Virus record (IMG/VR): IMGVR_UViG_3300044904_000300 | Span: 32,001 to 96,000 of that record | Length of the DNA: 64,000 nucleotides | DNA from: a virus | Strand: one strand, 5' to 3' | In this document: positions 942-52,669 of the stretch, piece after piece | Layout of the letters: each line of letters starts with the position of its first letter | Position numbering within the stretch: the first letter of the stretch is position 1 | Position numbers and translations under genes: made by a program | Notes under the pieces: model-generated | What the model was told of the DNA's origin: nothing | What the model saw: only the letters and a program-made list of their open reading frames with translations | Database searches by the model: none

Positions 942-949
942 TATAAATA
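942..949 (+). promoter_or_regulatory. T4-type late promoter TATAAATA inside a hairpin that covers the RBS of the HNH gene
   Basis: CTCCAC-GTTATAAATAGAT-GTGGAG; GGAGG at 955-959, ATG at 965. Confidence 0.8.
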
Positions 950-964
950 GATGTGGAGGCGAGA

Positions 965-1504
965 ATGGAAATAGCAGCTTGTAAATGTGGGGTGTGTGGA
1001 GCGGAATTTGAACGACCGGCAAAAGAAGTCCGCCGGTGTGCTCGACGGGGTCTAAACACTTATTGCGGCACGAAATGCGCTTTGGTGGCCACGAAGCAAA
1101 ACCTTAAACGCGGAGGAAATCCGGATGCGTTGGTGCTTGCTCGGGCAGCCAGATGGGGTGTGCCCAACGAGTTCCGTGAGCATCTACGAAGAGCACGCTC
1201 GCACTCTAAGGTGCGCGGCCGCGAGTGTAACATCACCGAGGAACATCTACAAGAGGTTTGGTTGCAGCAACAAGGGAAATGTGCGTATACCGGCATAGCA
1301 CTTCTTAACCCAACGTCGCTAACAAAGGCCGAGGACCCCGGGTGCCGCGCCAGTCTTGACCGTATCGACTCGTCACTAGGGTATGTTATTGGTAATGTTC
1401 AGTTTATTTCTGTGATGATGAACTATGCCAAATCGTCCTTTACCGATGCCGAAGTAAAGAAATTTGTTGACGCCGTTCGTAAAGGGTGTTATAATTACTC
1501 TTGA
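965..1504 (+). CDS. Free-standing HNH-type (His-Me finger) homing endonuclease
   Basis: N-terminal CxCxxC/CxxxC zinc finger; CAYTG...SLDRIDSSLGYVIGNVQFISVMMNYAKS beta-beta-alpha-Me core; has its own late promoter. Confidence 0.8.
   Translation: MEIAACKCGVCGAEFERPAKEVRRCARRGLNTYCGTKCALVATKQNLKRGGNPDALVLARAARWGVPNEFREHLRRARSHSKVRGRECNITEEHLQEVWLQQQGKCAYTGIALLNPTSLTKAEDPGCRASLDRIDSSLGYVIGNVQFISVMMNYAKSSFTDAEVKKFVDAVRKGCYNYS
1467..1495 (+). promoter_or_regulatory. sigma70 promoter (extended -10) for the tmRNA precursor
   Basis: TTGACG-17 bp-TATAAT, with TG-N before the -10; predicted +1 near 1501-1502. Confidence 0.8.
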
Positions 1505-12713: not shown

Positions 12714-13598
12714 TTATCCTCTTATAGTTGGCGCAATAGTCAACGGAATTAATGTCATTTCTCCGGGCGTGCCCCGCGAACTTGTTGTTGATGATGCAAT
12801 AACATGGTCACCCTGCTGTGCTACCGAAGTAATTTCACCAGGAGGCGGACCCGGTGCCTCTCTTACTGCAGTAATTGGTGTTGCACTAGGAACCCCCTGC
12901 GCGGGTCCCTCCTCGGGAAGAACGATACTTGACCCACCCGGAATCCCTGTTGTCTCACTCGGTGTGAATACGTCCAGCCCTGATGGGGGTGTGTTTGGGA
13001 AGAAGTCTTTTGGAACTTGCCAGACCGACCATGCGCTGAACGTGAAGGTTACGGGAAGTTTGGTCACCTCACTCTCGGTGCTCCACGATACTGCGACTGC
13101 ATCGACCAGTTTGGGATATGCTCGTTCGAATTGGTACCCGATGGTAGGGTTGTTCTGTCGGTCAAACACTGCGAGATAGATTTCCCCATAGTATCCTTTG
13201 GGGTCGGAAGACCCACCGGACCCCGCAAATGTGAAGTCCCGCGATGAATTGTACCCCGCGGTCATGTCCTGTATGAGGTTCTGCCACGCATGAAATACTC
13301 GCTGGATGGGGTTGTCGCCCCCGTTGAGCGGAGTGTTGAACGTGCAATTGAGCGCGGTGAATTCTGTATGATAGGGGAACTGCTCCGTCAACCCATACTG
13401 TGTGAGTTCTGTTTCGGCGAATGATCTATCGGGAAGAGATGTTGATTCACATGCAATACCCCGCGCAAGCCAATTCTTGGCGACGAGCATAGGCCCGGTA
13501 AGCGCCAACGCTCGGGGAACGATTACCTTGCACGCGAACCGATTGCTCTGTTGGAACCCGAGGTTGAATTCGTTGAAGAATTGACTGAGTTGCTGCAT
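12714..13598 (-). CDS. gp54: Tail-tube-like baseplate tube initiator
   Basis: NRF, CESTSLP, QFPY, F..WQ..I, YPK.V....SW, VTKLPVTF tube-fold motifs; Pro/Thr-rich C-terminal extension. Confidence 0.75.
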   Translation of the reverse strand: MQQLSQFFNEFNLGFQQSNRFACKVIVPRALALTGPMLVAKNWLARGIACESTSLPDRSFAETELTQYGLTEQFPYHTEFTALNCTFNTPLNGGDNPIQRVFHAWQNLIQDMTAGYNSSRDFTFAGSGGSSDPKGYYGEIYLAVFDRQNNPTIGYQFERAYPKLVDAVAVSWSTESEVTKLPVTFTFSAWSVWQVPKDFFPNTPPSGLDVFTPSETTGIPGGSSIVLPEEGPAQGVPSATPITAVREAPGPPPGEITSVAQQGDHVIASSTTSSRGTPGEMTLIPLTIAPTIRG

Positions 13599-14218
13599 TA
13601 GAATTTTTGCTCCGATTCTTTCCAGATGGTGCTTCTACTTTCCTTCGCAAATAGTTCCACCGGGAGCCAGAGTGCGATGTCCCATTCCGACTCTCCGACC
13701 TGAAGCATCGGGGACCGCAGGTTCTTGAAGAGATAGCGACGGTAACAAGGACGGAACTGCTCATACTTAGGGCTGGTCGCCAACCAATCATACTTGAATT
13801 TCATGCTGACTTTGAGCGGGTCTTTGCTTTTTTGCCGGCGCTCATAGAGGTTATCGAACAACCAGGCCCGCCAGTAGTAGCTCAGATAGTGAAAATTGAG
13901 CCCCGTGAAAGACTCTTGGTCTCGGTCAATCACGAGGACGAATGGAAACCGGTCATAGAATGGGAGTGTGTCTTTTCCCGACGGTTCATACAGGAAAAAA
14001 TAACAGAACCCCGGCAAGGTTCGTGAAGGTGAAACGACGCGCTTGGAGATGGGCTGTTGCTGGAGGTCGGAGAACTTTGGTTTGCCGAGCGAACGCTGCC
14101 AAGCCATTAGGTCCGTATAGAACGTCTTGAACCAGAACATCGCTCGCTTCTCCATCGGGAGCATCGCGTCGTTCTTCTCGATCTTTGCCCGGAGCGTCTG
14201 AAAGATGTTGACTGCCAT
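13598..14218 (-). CDS. gp2: DNA end protector protein
   Basis: YFFLYEP..KDTLPFYDRFP.V, GLNFHYL, C..RYL, W.IAL.LP.E.F. Confidence 0.9.
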   Translation of the reverse strand: MAVNIFQTLRAKIEKNDAMLPMEKRAMFWFKTFYTDLMAWQRSLGKPKFSDLQQQPISKRVVSPSRTLPGFCYFFLYEPSGKDTLPFYDRFPFVLVIDRDQESFTGLNFHYLSYYWRAWLFDNLYERRQKSKDPLKVSMKFKYDWLATSPKYEQFRPCYRRYLFKNLRSPMLQVGESEWDIALWLPVELFAKESRSTIWKESEQKF

Positions 14219-15153
14219 TACTTGATTGTTCCAAAAATTTCGCGTTCGGTTAAAATAACAAATTGGGCTCCATGAAGTTTACACCATTCCTCCGCTGCTT
14301 GAAATTTAGCAGAATTAATAGCAAAGGTAACTGTTTCATTAATATGTCGTTTATGCTGTCGGTTTGTCTTGGGCGCCGCCGGCGGTTTACACTGTTTTTC
14401 GGGTTTAACTTCGATGAGAAATGTCTTATTACTTCCATCTTTGGCCGCAACACGGATAAGAAAATCGGGAAAATAGGTATGCTGCTTCAAGTCGTCTGGG
14501 CGAATATAAGGGATGCGTATTTCTTCGCTAGACCAATTAACAATACCTGTGGTGTTGTCAAAATACCGCATCATACGAAATTCCCACCCCGACCGATAAA
14601 CAATATTTGTAGAATCTCCTACATATTTTTGCGGATTGGTAGGATGAAATTTCCCCTGATTAAACTGTGGCAATGTGATATCTCCATTAGCAAATGCGGA
14701 CAACCGAGTGTCGCTCATTTTCTGTCGTGTTTCGTCGGTATGGTGTTGACTCCGCCAATTCGAACCATGTAGCGTAATATACTCCTTTGCTTGTTTTGAT
14801 TTATTTTGACAAGCCCTTACAGGATATGGTCGTTTATTTTTAGAGCCTTTTGGGCGACCATTTTTGTTTCTGCACTTTACAGTGAATATTGGAGCCCATG
14901 CGGCCTTACGTTCGTCATTCCATCCTGCTTTTGCTCGTTCACTCGCGCAGACATATGCGTGTTTTCGACAGTGAACCGTGTAGCCGTTAGTTAAATCTAC
15001 ATAGCGAGTTGGTTCTTGGCAGATAAGGCATTTCCCCGAGGTTCCCATTGATAAGTAAATATCATAGTAACTCTGTGAGGTGTGTTTGTGACTACGAACG
15101 TGTTGAGCTAATGCGCGCACCGGCATATCATTATGGCATATTTGGCATATCAT
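14218..15153 (-). CDS. gp4: Head-completion nuclease gp4 fused to N-terminal zinc-finger and NUMOD3-like DNA-binding modules
   Basis: C-terminal QGKFHPTNPQKYVGDSTNIVYRSGWE...WSSEEI.IPY...YFPDF...IEVKP. N-terminal CQIC..H...H, CLIC...C..H and HHTDETRQKMS motifs. SD GGAGG precedes ATG 15153. Confidence 0.88.
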   Translation of the reverse strand: MICQICHNDMPVRALAQHVRSHKHTSQSYYDIYLSMGTSGKCLICQEPTRYVDLTNGYTVHCRKHAYVCASERAKAGWNDERKAAWAPIFTVKCRNKNGRPKGSKNKRPYPVRACQNKSKQAKEYITLHGSNWRSQHHTDETRQKMSDTRLSAFANGDITLPQFNQGKFHPTNPQKYVGDSTNIVYRSGWEFRMMRYFDNTTGIVNWSSEEIRIPYIRPDDLKQHTYFPDFLIRVAAKDGSNKTFLIEVKPEKQCKPPAAPKTNRQHKRHINETVTFAINSAKFQAAEEWCKLHGAQFVILTEREIFGTIK

Positions 15154-15238
15154 TAGATAGCAACCTCCACCAGTATTTAGCATCCCCTACATACTTCTGA
15201 GGGCGCTCCGGGTGATAGATTCCCTGATGATACTGCAT
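15131..15238 (-). pseudogene. Stub of the original gp4 5' end (35-codon ORF; first 19-20 codons homologous)
   Basis: MQYHQGIYHPERPQKYVGDA aligns with QFNQGKFHPTNPQKYVGDS in the fusion gene; it has its own late promoter. Confidence 0.8.
15174..15180 (-). promoter_or_regulatory. Late promoter CTAAATA for the gp4 fusion
   Basis: GCTAAATA-CTGGT-GGAGG on the minus strand, at the stub/insert junction. Confidence 0.7.
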
Positions 15239-15243
15239 GAGGC

Positions 15244-15250
15244 TATTTAG
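15244..15250 (-). promoter_or_regulatory. Late promoter CTAAATA (original gp4 promoter)
   Basis: 5 nt upstream of the stub ATG; divergent from the 15305 promoter. Confidence 0.7.
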
Positions 15251-15304
15251 GCGATGAAAACAACACAATACGAAAGTGCGGGGGCGACCGCTTCCGCTTG
15301 CTCT

Positions 15305-15311
15305 CTAAATA
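15305..15311 (+). promoter_or_regulatory. Late promoter CTAAATA for gp48
   Basis: Followed by GAGG and ATG 15332. Confidence 0.7.
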
Positions 15312-15331
15312 CTTACAGAGGTTAGACCTAC

Positions 15332-16336
15332 ATGGCGCAAGTTCTCACATACCCAGAAAACGTGTCCAAGTTCAACAAGTGGCTTCGCTTTGATGCGCGG
15401 AAAGGCCGCCATGTTGGGCGGGGCGTGATGGTCAACGAGGCGGGACAGACGGATAGTGTGGTCATGTGCGCTGCGATGTATCTTCCCACCAGCGCGTTGA
15501 AATCCTCGATGACCGTCAACTACGACACAACCGAGTTCTCGGGGATGATGATGGAACAAGCCGCGCAAGCCGCGACGGAAGCTGCGAATATGAAATTGGG
15601 AGAGAACGGACTGGATTCTATTGGTAACGCCGCAGAAGCAGTTTTGGGCACCGCGATGAAGCTGGCAGGCAGCCTTGGCGCGGAGAGTATTGGAGAATGG
15701 CTCAAAAAATACACCGCAAAAAAGGCGGTTGACAAATTCGGAACGCAGATTGAAGCGATGGTGGGACAGAAGGTCAACCCCCGCACGGACATCATCTTCA
15801 GCGCCCAGGATTACCGTAAGTGGAGTTTTGAATACATCCTCATCCCCCGCACGATCACCGAAGCACGAAACATCGAACAGATTGTCAACATGTTCCGGTT
15901 CTACATGCTCCCGGTCTATCGTAGTGCGGATACAAAACTTGGTGCATCGGGCGCATACATGATGGGTTATCCATATGAGTGGACCATCACCGCGCATGGG
16001 GCGGGCTCCGGGCAAGACAAAACAGGAACAGATTCATACGGGACCTTTGACTACGGAACAGACACGAATGATGCGCGGGGCAACTTGGGCAACCCCCTCA
16101 ATACTGGAGATATCAACTTGAAAGTCAACAAGATTGGTCGGTCGGTGCTTACCAATTTGTCCGTTGACCAAGCTGGTGGCGGAAAAGTCGCGTTTGTCGG
16201 AGAGGGTGGACAGAACGAACTATTTCCGTTGGTCACGCAGATGTCGCTCGAATTCCAAGAAGTCGTCCTCTTGGGACGAGACAATACGGATATTCTCGGT
16301 GGGATGCCGGCCGGCGGAGACCCAAGAAACGCATAG
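15332..16336 (+). CDS. gp48: Baseplate tail-tube cap
   Basis: MYLP, VNPR..IIFS...R.WSF.Y.LIPR...EA..I..IV..FR.YMLP, YP.EW.I, L.FQE. Confidence 0.85.
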   Translation: MAQVLTYPENVSKFNKWLRFDARKGRHVGRGVMVNEAGQTDSVVMCAAMYLPTSALKSSMTVNYDTTEFSGMMMEQAAQAATEAANMKLGENGLDSIGNAAEAVLGTAMKLAGSLGAESIGEWLKKYTAKKAVDKFGTQIEAMVGQKVNPRTDIIFSAQDYRKWSFEYILIPRTITEARNIEQIVNMFRFYMLPVYRSADTKLGASGAYMMGYPYEWTITAHGAGSGQDKTGTDSYGTFDYGTDTNDARGNLGNPLNTGDINLKVNKIGRSVLTNLSVDQAGGGKVAFVGEGGQNELFPLVTQMSLEFQEVVLLGRDNTDILGGMPAGGDPRNA

Positions 16337-22602: not shown

Positions 22603-22609
22603 CTAAATA
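22603..22609 (+). promoter_or_regulatory. Late promoter CTAAATA
   Basis: 5 nt before the gp25 ATG. Confidence 0.7.
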
Positions 22610-22614
22610 CGAGC

Positions 22615-23019
22615 ATGGCAGACGCAAATTTCCAGAACGTGCGGGAGTATAAGGACATTTCGTTATCGATGGGGCTCAACCCCGTCACGAACGACATTAT
22701 TACTCTCACGGGCGCCGCGGCGGTCGTGCGGTCTATCAAGACGCTCATGCAGACTTATGCGGGAGAAGTACCGTTCTTTCCAGATTTCGCGTCCCGTCTT
22801 CGAGAACTGCTCTTTGAACCGATTGACTCGATTACGACCAGTTTGATAGAAACCGAACTTCAAACGATCCTTGACGCTTACGAACCGCGGGCGACGATAC
22901 AGACGATCACCGTCACGCCAGACCCGGACAACAACCAGTATCTTGTCCTCTTGGAAATTCAGATCGTCAATACTGCCGAGGACGTGACGTTCAGCTTGTA
23001 TCTCAAACGACTCAGATAA
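22615..23019 (+). CDS. gp25: Baseplate wedge subunit
   Basis: YKDISLS...NPVTNDI, AV.RSIK.L..T..GE.PF.P.F.S.LR.LLFEP, YEPRA. Confidence 0.95.
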   Translation: MADANFQNVREYKDISLSMGLNPVTNDIITLTGAAAVVRSIKTLMQTYAGEVPFFPDFASRLRELLFEPIDSITTSLIETELQTILDAYEPRATIQTITVTPDPDNNQYLVLLEIQIVNTAEDVTFSLYLKRLR

Positions 23020-28626: not shown

Positions 28627-28633
28627 CTAAATA
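28627..28633 (+). promoter_or_regulatory. Late promoter CTAAATA
   Basis: 6 nt before the gp8 ATG. Confidence 0.7.
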
Positions 28634-28639
28634 CACACT

Positions 28640-30064
28640 ATGCCAAGCATTTTAACACAGAACTATCGCACGCACCTCGCCACGGAATTGCTATCCCGTC
28701 TTGCGTGGGCGGAAACTGTCGATGACCTGACTGCCGCGGGGGCGCTCACGTCGGACGGCAGAACTACGCTTCTTACTGCGGCCAATACGGTGTCGCTCTA
28801 TGCGTTCATCGGACATACGACACCGTGGCCGACCGAGGGCGCACCCCCGACACCAGTAGACACTCCACAGGAAACGACCTACGATTACTGGCGGCACATG
28901 TTGTTTGCTAAACGGGTTCTCTCAACAGACTTTGCGTTTGTGGTTCCTCGTATTGACTGGAACGCCAACACCGTTTATACGCAGTATGATGATACTACGG
29001 TCCTTGCGAACACAAATTTCTATGTTTTGGTGCTGGACGATGCGGGCGGAACCCCTGCATATCAAGTATACAAATGCTTGTGGAACGCTGGTGGAGCGAA
29101 TAGCACGTATCAACCGACAGGAATCGATAGCGACCCCCAAACCTATGATGACGGATACGTTTGGCAGTATTTGTATTCGTTAGCAACGACCACGGACGAC
29201 TTCCTCACCGACGACTGGATGCCGGTATACGAAACCTCGTCTCTTCAGGCAGTCGCGCTTGCAAACCCTGGCACTCTTCCGAGAGCAGTTCCGTTCGTAA
29301 TCGTAACGCCTGGCGCGAACTATAATGCCAGCGTGAACGCCGTCTGCACACTTACGGGAGATGGCGCGGGAGCATCCGTCGCAAACGGCGGCATCGCAAT
29401 CGTTGGCGGCACCGTCCAGAGCGTCACCCTGCTATCGGGGGGCACGGGCTATACGAATGTCGGCTCTATCAACATCTATCAGTCTGGCGCAAGCCTAGCG
29501 ACGGCCAGAGCGATTATACCCCCGTATCCGAATCACGGTTACGATAACGTCCACGAGCTACAGGCAAAGCATCTAATGTGCGTTGTCGAGTTCTATGGAG
29601 ACGAAGGTGGGAAGCTCACCGTTAATAATGACTTTCGGCAGATTGGGTTAGTCGTCAATCCACTTTTGGCAAACGGAGTGCTTGCAACGGACACCAAATA
29701 CAAACAAACGTGGGATGTAACGGTGCAGGCGGGCGCTCCAACGTATAACCCTGACGATGTGGTGATAAATACCACGAAATCTCCGTCACCATTCGGAGTG
29801 GTCGTAGATACGTTGGCAGGAGAGGCCGGAAAGAAGATCATTCGCTTGACGGACGTAAATGTGCAGGGCTTTACGACGCCGTTCGGCGAAGGCGATACAC
29901 TCAACGTTGTCGAATCTTCTCCTTCAACAGTTTCAGCAGACGCCGTGAGCAACCCAGAACTACTCCCGTATACTGGAGAAGTGCTGTATGTGACGCAGCG
30001 TGTTCCTGTGACCCGAACCGCGGACCAGACACAGGAATTTAAGATCGCATTACCTTTTGGGTGA
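28640..30064 (+). CDS. gp8: Baseplate wedge subunit
   Basis: MPSILT..YR, Y.FIG...PW, VVPRIDW...TVY..YDD, VYKCL.N, DGYVWQYLY, DFRQIGLV.NP, QEFKI.L.F. Confidence 0.93.
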   Translation: MPSILTQNYRTHLATELLSRLAWAETVDDLTAAGALTSDGRTTLLTAANTVSLYAFIGHTTPWPTEGAPPTPVDTPQETTYDYWRHMLFAKRVLSTDFAFVVPRIDWNANTVYTQYDDTTVLANTNFYVLVLDDAGGTPAYQVYKCLWNAGGANSTYQPTGIDSDPQTYDDGYVWQYLYSLATTTDDFLTDDWMPVYETSSLQAVALANPGTLPRAVPFVIVTPGANYNASVNAVCTLTGDGAGASVANGGIAIVGGTVQSVTLLSGGTGYTNVGSINIYQSGASLATARAIIPPYPNHGYDNVHELQAKHLMCVVEFYGDEGGKLTVNNDFRQIGLVVNPLLANGVLATDTKYKQTWDVTVQAGAPTYNPDDVVINTTKSPSPFGVVVDTLAGEAGKKIIRLTDVNVQGFTTPFGEGDTLNVVESSPSTVSADAVSNPELLPYTGEVLYVTQRVPVTRTADQTQEFKIALPFG

Positions 30065-30077
30065 TGCACCCTGTTCT

Positions 30078-30085
30078 TATAAATA
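30078..30085 (+). promoter_or_regulatory. Late promoter TATAAATA
   Basis: 5 nt before ATG 30091. Confidence 0.75.
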
Positions 30086-30090
30086 GAGTT

Positions 30091-30729
30091 ATGCTCTATA
30101 CTATCTACAAGACCACAAACTTGCTGTCGGGGAAAATATACATCGGCGCCCACAAAACAGAGAATATTGATGATGGGTACCTTGGTTCGGGTATTCACAT
30201 CAAACGGGCTTTGAAAAAGTATGGAAGACGACATTTTGTAAAAGAGATACTCTTTGTTTTTGATACACCAGAGGAAATGTTTGCGAAAGAAAAAGCGTTA
30301 GTTAATGAAGAGTTTGTTAGCAGGAGCGATACATACAATAAGATAGTTGGTGGAGAGGGCTCGACTGACCTTCGTAACTGGACAGAAGAACGACACCAAA
30401 AGATATCTGCGGCGACTAAAAAGCAGTGGAAGAACCCGAAGTTCCGTGAAATGATGCTTCAAGTTCGTCATCGTTGTCGCCCGAGTATTGCTACAAAACA
30501 AAAAATATCTATTACAAAACAGGGTCACTCGGCTACGGAAAAAACCAGAATAGCGTGGAAACAAATTAGCGCAAAAAATCGTGGAAGGATCTGGATTAAA
30601 CACGATAAGTTACAGCAATGCTGTTATGTCCCTCTAACGGATTTTGCAAACTACGAACTTAGCGGGTGGGTTCGTGGTCGCATTTATCACCGGCGAGCAG
30701 AAGAAAACAACTATGGCTCTATCAAATAG
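30091..30729 (+). CDS. Free-standing GIY-YIG (Seg-like) homing endonuclease
   Basis: YTIYKTTNLLSGKIYIG.HKT...DDGYLGSG, ALKKYG...F.KEIL, YN...GG.G, then NUMOD3-like repeats; AT-rich. Confidence 0.92.
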   Translation: MLYTIYKTTNLLSGKIYIGAHKTENIDDGYLGSGIHIKRALKKYGRRHFVKEILFVFDTPEEMFAKEKALVNEEFVSRSDTYNKIVGGEGSTDLRNWTEERHQKISAATKKQWKNPKFREMMLQVRHRCRPSIATKQKISITKQGHSATEKTRIAWKQISAKNRGRIWIKHDKLQQCCYVPLTDFANYELSGWVRGRIYHRRAEENNYGSIK

Positions 30730-52171: not shown

Positions 52172-52178
52172 CTAAATA
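52172..52178 (+). promoter_or_regulatory. Late promoter CTAAATA
   Basis: 5 nt before ATG 52184. Confidence 0.7.
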
Positions 52179-52183
52179 GAGGT

Positions 52184-52669
52184 ATGGTAGAAAAAACTTA
52201 CCTCATTTACAAGTTAACTCGGGATGACGGAATGCTTTACATTGGCACAACGGATTCAACCCGATTTAAGAATCGAATGTGCCAACATCGAGGTACCTCC
52301 CGGTTTGTTGGTCATACATTTTCAACAGAGATACTTGCTGAAAATGCAGAAATTGCTATTCTATTACAAGAAGCAGACTTTATAACACAATACAACACAC
52401 TTTCTCCATTTGGGCTCAACCTCACAAAAAGTGGTAAAGGAAGCGGGCACGATTCTCTACATTTTACTACACGGGGATACAAGTTTAGTGAAGAAAGCCG
52501 AAAAAGGATGAGCGAATCTGCTAAACGCCGATGCAAGACCAATCCCCGTTTGGGTTGGTCGCACAGTGAAGAAACAAAAACTCACTGGAGCAAACGACGA
52601 AAGGGCATTCACGCTCGGGCACTTAAAGGAAAAACTATCGATGAGTTTTGTTCTCAATCGACATTATGA
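52184..52669 (+). CDS. GIY-YIG homing endonuclease with NUMOD3-like repeats, between the split terminase halves
   Basis: LIYKLT....LYIG.T, R...R..QH, E..FI..Y.TL.P.GLN; FSEESRKRMS and HSEETK repeats. Confidence 0.85.
   Translation: MVEKTYLIYKLTRDDGMLYIGTTDSTRFKNRMCQHRGTSRFVGHTFSTEILAENAEIAILLQEADFITQYNTLSPFGLNLTKSGKGSGHDSLHFTTRGYKFSEESRKRMSESAKRRCKTNPRLGWSHSEETKTHWSKRRKGIHARALKGKTIDEFCSQSTL

Follow-up and report, generated by a model that had tools for sequence, protein, structure and literature searches.

Probable replacement of the resident gp4 gene of an uncultured T4-like myovirus by a long gp4 joined to a putative DNA-binding arm, a candidate homing cassette

The record IMGVR_UViG_3300044904_000300 represents an uncultured T4-like myovirus (135.8 kb, ~53% GC, estimated to be 75% complete). 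We analysed 64,000 nt of this record, referred to here as the window, and describe a gp4 locus in which the remnant of one gp4 gene precedes a second, much longer one. All parts of the locus lie on the minus strand. A late-promoter-like CTAAATA motif (15244-15250) stands 5 nt before the ATG of an open reading frame (ORF) of 35 codons (15131-15238; ATG at 15238, stop codon at 15133-15131), of which only the first 20 codons (15238-15179) correspond to gp4; we call this ORF the stub. A second CTAAATA (15174-15180) and, as read from the sequence, a GGAGG Shine-Dalgarno motif (15164-15168) follow, and then the long gp4 gene (14218-15153), which encodes 311 amino acids (aa) from an ATG at 15153. Its product is predicted to consist of an N-terminal DNA-binding arm and a complete gp4 nuclease domain (14221-14667). 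The gene for the gp2 DNA-end protector (13598-14218; phrog_429, 8e-34) comes directly after it, with an ATG that overlaps the stop codon of the long gp4 (TAATG).

The origin of the stub becomes apparent from a relative contig, L004, which was found by a gp2 search and whose gp53-like and gp6-like proteins are 85% and 83% identical to those of the window. At the same position L004 has an intact gp4 of 150 aa with native composition (G+C content at third codon positions, GC3, of 0.63), and the resident CTAAATA occupies the same place before it. The first 20 codons of the stub agree with the start of this gp4 at 54 of 60 nt and 17 of 20 aa. Unrelated short gp4s used as tblastn queries also match the stub (E 5e-4 to 2e-3), and its GC3 of 0.55 resembles that of the resident genome. 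On the left, homology to L004 stops at ...GGGGATGC (GATGC), directly before the TAAATA of the second motif, so that this CTAAATA was formed at the junction with the incoming DNA. On the right, homology picks up again at ...TCAAGTAATG, where gp4 stops and gp2 starts. It follows that codons 21-150 of the resident gp4 have been replaced by 961 nt. The break falls directly after conserved codons for KYVGD, and the cassette's own copy of this stretch differs at ~13 of 46 nt (counted by eye in the alignment to L004). Together, these observations make it very probable that the resident gp4 was horizontally replaced by a self-contained long-gp4 cassette. A preliminary description of the window, made without database searches, had already reported a 35-codon gp4 stub behind a late promoter, with a second promoter and GGAGG at the exact point where homology ends, and had proposed a comparison with relatives that keep an intact gp4. 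L004 supplies that comparison and bears out both points, with homology covering the first 20 codons.

Could the stub and the long gene instead be an artefact, either an assembly chimera of two related phages or two parts of one gene joined by splicing or frameshifting? The locus is known from a single metagenome assembly, and its junction was seen in no other contig, as a chimera would have it. However, at the left junction codon 20 of gp4 meets a promoter region that is not homologous, which leaves no shared k-mer that could mislead an assembler, the right junction shares only ~10 nt, and an analogous swap was found in two samples of another lineage (see below). An intron, intein or frameshift within gp4 was considered and rejected. 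A scan of positions 13900-15500 against Rfam gave no match at E<=1 and hence no sign of an intron, the stub ends in a stop codon, the two ORFs are in different frames, and the fused ORF has a full gp4 N-terminus of its own. Splicing, which the preliminary description had named as the alternative to be excluded, is unlikely for the same reasons, and we consider an artefact of either kind very improbable.

The CTAAATA motif occurs 12 times in the window against 2.8 occurrences expected, a count that no shuffled sequence attained. Apart from the two sites at the gp4 locus, it precedes the gene for a gp48-like baseplate tail-tube cap protein (15332-16336, plus strand; phrog_230, 5e-21), which is divergent from the gp4 locus and has its own CTAAATA at 15305-15311. 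Because the motif is enriched and usually stands a few bases before a gene start, we take it to act as the core of the phage's late promoters. The leader of the long gp4 consists of the junction CTAAATA, 5 nt, GGAGG, 10 nt and ATG 15153. This layout is shared with an HNH gene near 944-967, whose leader reads TATAAATA-5 nt-GGAGG-5 nt-ATG, as the preliminary description had pointed out. The label HNH also comes from that description. The gene in question, in window positions 944-1100, is cysteine-rich and starts at 965 behind TATAAATA-GATGT-GGAGG. Elsewhere in the window, many (C/T)TAAATA motifs lie only 5-12 nt before an ATG with little or no Shine-Dalgarno sequence (22603-22620, 28627-28645, 52172-52188, 30079-30096 and, on the minus strand, 15244-15238), a spacing from which late mRNAs with a very short leader, or with none, may be expected in this phage. 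In contrast, TAAATA-5 nt-GGAGG is used by the two genes that look imported, namely the long gp4 and the HNH gene near 965. The stub ORF itself extends in another frame across the GGAGG and the initiation codon of the long gp4, ending 20 nt into that gene (15131-15153, minus strand). Given this overlap, ribosomes translating the stub from the resident promoter could affect initiation on the long gene.

The longest ORF opens at 15183 and the database gene call begins at 15126, but translation probably begins at M11 of the longest ORF, the ATG at 15153, a start that keeps the conserved CxxC of the first finger. Counted from this start, the protein comprises an N-terminal extension of 162 aa and 149 final residues that form a complete gp4, including its own version of the gp4 N-terminus. 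It is thus well outside the size of the gp4 class (145-155 aa, single domain); the short forms in our comparison have 143-160 aa. The gp4 domain, residues 174-317 of the longest ORF, matches phrog_218 ('head closure') at 7e-52 and PF08722 with 77.3 bits against a curated cut-off of 26.5, and T7 endonuclease I gives a weak sequence match to it. Alignments of long with short forms show no variation in the residues of the PD-(D/E)XK motif (E...D...ExK), namely E191, D230, E248 and K250. An AlphaFold (AF2) model of the long gp4 has a mean predicted local distance difference test score (pLDDT) of 78, with 84-94 over the nuclease domain, and this domain resembles TnsA both in Foldseek (1f1z, E 2.4e-4) and in VIA (1t0f, Z 9.7, root-mean-square deviation 2.8 Å over 115 residues). 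The model agrees with what was predicted earlier for gp4 (PMC1189080). That gp4 is a nuclease is established, and for T4 gp4 the DNase activity, and the need for it in head-tail joining, are known from the literature (Benler et al. 2020, as cited in PMC7824862).

The composition of the long gene sets it apart from its surroundings. GC content is 0.40-0.46 across 14200-15100 and 0.50-0.57 outside, and GC3 is 0.35 in the gp4 domain and 0.38 in the N-terminal domain compared with 0.54-0.68 in neighbouring genes. The gp4 domain is 60% identical to the gp4 of L004 at the amino acid level; the gp2 proteins of the two contigs are 83% identical, and the window gp2 has a GC3 of 0.68. In its profile matches, E/D/ExK motif, TnsA-like fold and gp2-overlapping position the window gene corresponds to gp4 of T4 (phrog_218, PF08722), from which it differs in being twice the size, in its 162-aa arm, in its foreign composition and in the adjoining stub of the original gp4. 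It adjoins gp2 in the morphogenesis cluster, as is typical of gp4, and is the only gp4 match in the 135.8-kb record, at the completeness estimated for that record. From the sole copy, the intact motif and the conservation of the domain, it is likely that the long gp4 supplies the gp4 function of this phage. The preliminary description had characterised the gene as AT-richer than its surroundings, as containing a complete second gp4 that repeats the N-terminus, and as having a TnsA-like PD-(D/E)XK fold, and all three statements hold.

Four elements can be recognised in the arm. The first is a putative C2H2-type zinc finger (C3, C6, H18 and H22, numbered from the M at 15153; positions 15088-15147), with ligands that are invariant or nearly so in family alignments; homologues match zf-C2H2 (2.4e-6) and ROS_MUCR (2e-9). 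The second is a zinc-ribbon-like unit (C42, C45, C62 and C69; 14947-15030) whose cysteines are invariant in the family alignment A7. The third, GRPKGSKNKRPYP (14821-14859), is the most conserved stretch of the N-terminal extension and is repeated in tandem in the variant L207; we take it to be an AT-hook-like motif of the kind found in HMGA. The fourth is a NUMOD3-like helix (W...HHTDETRQKMSDTR; 14704-14757). NUMOD3 is detected in two homologues (E 2e-4), and relatives carry the canonical GKKHTEETKEKMS. A fold search with the whole model returned no informative match for the arm. Of the two zinc-finger-like units and the NUMOD3-like motif noticed previously, the key residues are conserved across the family; the NUMOD3 assignment stays below threshold in the window protein itself.

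A second, independent replacement was found in another phage lineage by comparing the contigs L184 and L186. Their flanking DNA is 91-92% identical and their gp2 proteins are 97% identical, whereas their gp4 domains are only 56% identical at the amino acid level. In L186, a short gp4 lies directly upstream of gp2. In L184, a long gp4 pointing the other way has replaced exactly this ORF, from its start codon to its stop codon; the long gene has TATAAATA and AGGAG of its own and a GC3 of 0.32 versus 0.47. The same structure is present in a contig from another sample (L185/L102). As the replacing gene is inverted, neither divergence in place nor a homologous exchange confined to gp4 can have produced it. 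The reading that the resident gp4 diverged in situ was rejected on the grounds that a stub is present, that GC3 shifts and that the L184 gene is inverted. Otherwise the two contigs differ in this region only by endonuclease genes of the GIY-YIG and HNH types, one on each side in L184 and both absent from L186. These two genes (L184:213-809, plus strand, and L184:3565-4113, minus strand; = L099) open with nearly the same 19 residues, MYR..IHPNIREDASM, which may mean that one 5' leader or regulatory cassette is common to both, unrelated though the two genes are.

The arrangement in L184 raises the possibility that the arm is a relic, that is, that a free-standing endonuclease upstream of a donor gp4 lost its catalytic domain and was fused in frame to gp4, and that the fusion, now domesticated, has been moved by co-conversion with neighbouring endonuclease genes. 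The L184 gene does lie between GIY-YIG and HNH genes that its relative lacks, and its domain order is the reverse of that in known GIY-YIG and HNH homing enzymes such as I-TevI and I-HmuI, in which the nuclease is N-terminal and the binding arm C-terminal. However, the gp2 gene between the L184 long gp4 and the HNH gene is 91.6% identical in nucleotides to that of L186, the same as the background, which speaks against a long co-conversion tract. No endonuclease gene adjoins the window gp4 either, the nearest HNH gene being 13 kb away. The fusion architecture has been kept at 30-48% identity over many lineages, and proteins described below (g167 and P0075) pair such an arm with such a nuclease domain. 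We therefore regard a relic as unlikely.

The window gene belongs to a family. About 25 further long gp4 genes were found in metagenomes, 30-48% identical over the full length and of the same architecture; among the variants, some lack the fingers and some have a repeated AT-hook. One of them (L207:2417-3283) has no zinc fingers, carries a GxKNKNPYP...NG unit in tandem, and has a GC content of 0.41 against 0.46-0.47 in its flanks. Wherever the flanks have a GC content of at least 0.41, the long gp4 is AT-richer than they are (the window, L184, L098/L206 and L207). Long gp4 is the sole gp4 on contigs of 45-77 kb. Long gp4 was absent from 50,697 records of cultured phages, and none of the 2,566 phage records with a gp4 that were searched has the 162-aa arm. 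Megablast of the locus returned no match among cultured phages, and the arm alone gave one insignificant match there. In literature searches, no account of a gp4-endonuclease fusion or of DUF7487 came up. As far as the sequences go, the long-gp4 fusion is an old and widespread family and not a recent co-option in this genome.

The nuclease domain and the arm have different histories. Trees of the gp4 domain were built from ~150 columns with fast searches, and their deeper branches are unreliable. In them, the window domain groups with seven short gp4s, including that of L004, and not with other long forms; support by the Shimodaira-Hasegawa-like approximate likelihood ratio test (SH-aLRT) was 100 in one tree and 86.5 in another. 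The long form of L184 is sister to the short form of L186 (SH-aLRT 93), and the long form of L094 forms a group with P0006 whose sister is the short gp4 of L105, a relative with a gp2 76% identical (SH-aLRT 94.8). Approximately unbiased (AU) tests, run with iqtree2 under LG+G4, rejected monophyly of the long forms (p 0.003), their monophyly without the window (0.008), and a grouping of the window with its nearest relatives by arm, P0002 and P0015 (p 0.005). The new finding here is that these trees place each long nuclease domain as sister to short gp4 from the same phage clade. This discordance indicates that a homologous arm was joined to clade-specific gp4 backbones several times, at least three. 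Within clades, a long allele and the local short allele are 56-60% identical in amino acids while their flanks are 83-97% identical, which argues that the long alleles are old and move horizontally among the members of a clade. The preliminary description had singled out congruence between the fused gp4 domain and its neighbours as evidence against mobility. At the level of clades the domain is indeed congruent, and to that extent the objection applies; between close relatives it is discordant, most clearly in L184 and L186.

Relatives of both the arm and the nuclease occur among endonuclease genes. The finger and ribbon together form a unit of ~65 aa that is present in 494 representative proteins, often in tandem. 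Among the best 120 of these 494, the partner domains were DUF7487 (48), TnsA-like (13), MTES_1575 (8), DUF559 (6) and HNH (1), and the proteins that were sampled match PHROG families labelled homing endonuclease. In one such protein, P0075, DUF7487 overlaps the linker and the start of a TnsA-like domain. In Yersinia phage phiR1-RT, the gene for the terminase large subunit (L085:1420-4269) is split by g167, a 199-aa 'endonuclease'. Its alignment with the window protein (E 2e-10) takes in residues 90-303 of the latter, a region spanning the NUMOD3-like motif and the nuclease. In the Krischvirus Escherichia phage TB34 (L086:1166-4313), the same nuclease is fused to the N-terminal piece of a split terminase. 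Hence a nuclease of this type with an arm of this type has already been found inserted in an essential gene. We found no functional study or description of the g167-type terminase-splitting endonuclease in the literature. The phiR1-RT g167/TG1 'endonuclease' and its Krischvirus homologue share with the long gp4 the matches to PF08722 and PF05367 and the order of NUMOD3-like motif and gp4/TnsA-like nuclease. They differ from it in that g167 is an insertion in gp17 without zinc fingers, in phages that presumably keep a normal gp4.

The free-standing Seg (GIY-YIG) and Mob (HNH) endonucleases of T4-like phages likewise have their own late promoter and ribosome-binding site (RBS), are AT-richer than the genome and sporadically distributed, and lie in or beside a conserved essential gene; their zinc-finger or NUMOD3-type modules resemble those predicted for the arm of the long gp4. 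Unlike them, the long gp4 has a C-terminal nuclease of the PD-(D/E)XK type and replaces its putative target with a homologue rather than adjoining it. A restriction-enzyme-fold catalytic domain is shared with I-Ssp6803I and with the EDxHD/Vsr-like I-Bth0305I, whose binding region is N-terminal and catalytic domain C-terminal; the catalytic domain 3r3p aligns to the long gp4 model at Z 5.0. This is a general likeness of fold only, and those enzymes are intron-encoded and without a morphogenetic role. In phage Aeh1, nrdA is split by mobE, an endonuclease gene inside an essential gene that retains its function, which lets the phage survive. At the gp4 locus, by contrast, all that is left of the 5' piece is a dead stub of 20 codons, and the function would be kept through the complete replacement domain to which the incoming arm is fused.

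We hypothesize that the best explanation of these observations is an acquired long-gp4 cassette that homes in a site-directed manner into short gp4 alleles, a reading to which we assign a probability of roughly 55%. The cassette consists of a late-promoter-like motif, a strong RBS and one ORF that joins the putative four-part arm to an intact gp4 nuclease, and it very probably replaced the resident gp4 from codon 21 to the stop codon, so that of the resident gene only the promoter and a dead stub of 20 codons are left. Most likely, the arm would direct the gp4 nuclease, which normally lacks specificity, to defined sites in the short gp4 of co-infecting relatives, and repair of the cut would then copy the long allele in, as in the intronless homing promoted by the Seg and Mob endonucleases of T4. 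Because the cargo is a working gp4, the essential function would never be lost, and long alleles could spread within clades by displacing short ones. Several features of homing genes can be recognised. Expression signals of its own are present as motif matches (CTAAATA and GGAGG in the window, TATAAATA and AGGAG in L184), presence is sporadic between close relatives (the window versus L004, L184 versus L186), and a conserved gene appears to be interrupted such that the putative target site is destroyed. That the long gp4 drives its own spread by cutting short alleles is in our view an even call, resting on the architecture, the distribution, the accompanying endonuclease genes and the break beside the KYVGD codons. 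A further step, which we propose only tentatively, is that gp4 is both the target and the cargo of homing, the arm repeatedly capturing a local gp4 and the long alleles overwriting short ones while carrying out head completion. The homing reading predicts a site-specific cut near codons 15-25 of short gp4.

Several observations weigh against site-directed homing. The 60% identity of the gp4 domain is no outlier in the window, since the gp48-like protein is 63% and a tube-like gene 59% identical to the L004 counterparts, and the case for foreign origin in the window therefore rests on GC3 (0.35 versus 0.63) and on the stub. The exact window junction was found in no other IMG/VR or JGI metagenome contig and thus depends on one assembly, and no stub was found upstream of the ~25 other long-gp4 genes searched; a weak match at L100 was examined as a second stub and discarded, as it falls in an HNH-like ORF. 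With regard to the arm, NUMOD3 in the window protein is below the Pfam threshold (E 0.11, 12.9 bits versus 20.4), and the arm modelled alone (pLDDT 67) has no significant match in the PDB (best E 1.4), with weak resemblances to C2H2 arrays. T4 gp4 is described as a non-specific DNase where PMC7824862 cites Benler 2020. Finally, most long-gp4 loci occupy the canonical site beside gp2 and gp48, have the composition of their neighbours and lack a stub, so that a stable morphogenetic variant fits them as well as a fixed selfish element does.

The last point belongs to the main rival, a passive replacement of alleles in which the long gp4 is a lineage variant whose arm has a part in morphogenesis, perhaps that of keeping hold of the end of the packaged DNA. 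Exchange would then proceed by illegitimate or microhomology recombination at late-promoter motifs, with the stub left by an off-register crossover. We rank it first among the alternatives because both swaps have a junction at the late-promoter core, TAAATA in the window and TATAAATA in L184, and such junctions could point to the promoter-mediated modular shuffling described for T4-type phages (PMC2839356, PMC4122927). That long gp4 is the only gp4 of large contigs and that its nuclease domain follows the clade of the host phage are also in keeping with it. Passive exchange leaves unexplained, however, why the modules of the arm are common to many nuclease fusions that match 'homing endonuclease' PHROGs, and why a NUMOD3 motif combined with a gp4-like nuclease splits gp17 in phiR1-RT. 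Nor does it account for the recurrence of the swap in a second lineage, there in inverted orientation and with a classical endonuclease gene on each side, or for the exchange of an essential single-copy gene for an allele 56-60% identical amid flanks that are 83-97% identical. On this evidence we judge passive exchange to be possible and on balance doubtful. The claim of the preliminary description that an essential nuclease was co-opted as a selfish element is partly supported. The truncation, the foreign and self-promoted replacement, and the presence or absence of the long gene in two phage pairs are borne out, self-catalysed homing is inferred, and the fusion is neither a recent co-option nor is its gp4 domain alien.

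As a rule, homing endonuclease genes are passengers that can be dispensed with and that decay after fixation. In the long gp4, one and the same protein could plausibly be both the selfish nuclease and an essential assembly enzyme. If this is true, drive would be coupled to indispensability and the selfish element could not be lost, which could explain the exchange of core genes despite the constraint on them. The scaffolds of mobile phage endonucleases would extend to the gp4/TnsA-like branch of the PD-(D/E)XK fold, and one modular system would link DUF7487, phrog_15427, phrog_3339 and the gp17-splitting 'endonuclease' of Tegunavirus and Krischvirus. The long gp4 may also show how a non-specific DNase can be given new targets in nature, through the addition of an arm of zinc-finger, AT-hook and NUMOD3 modules.

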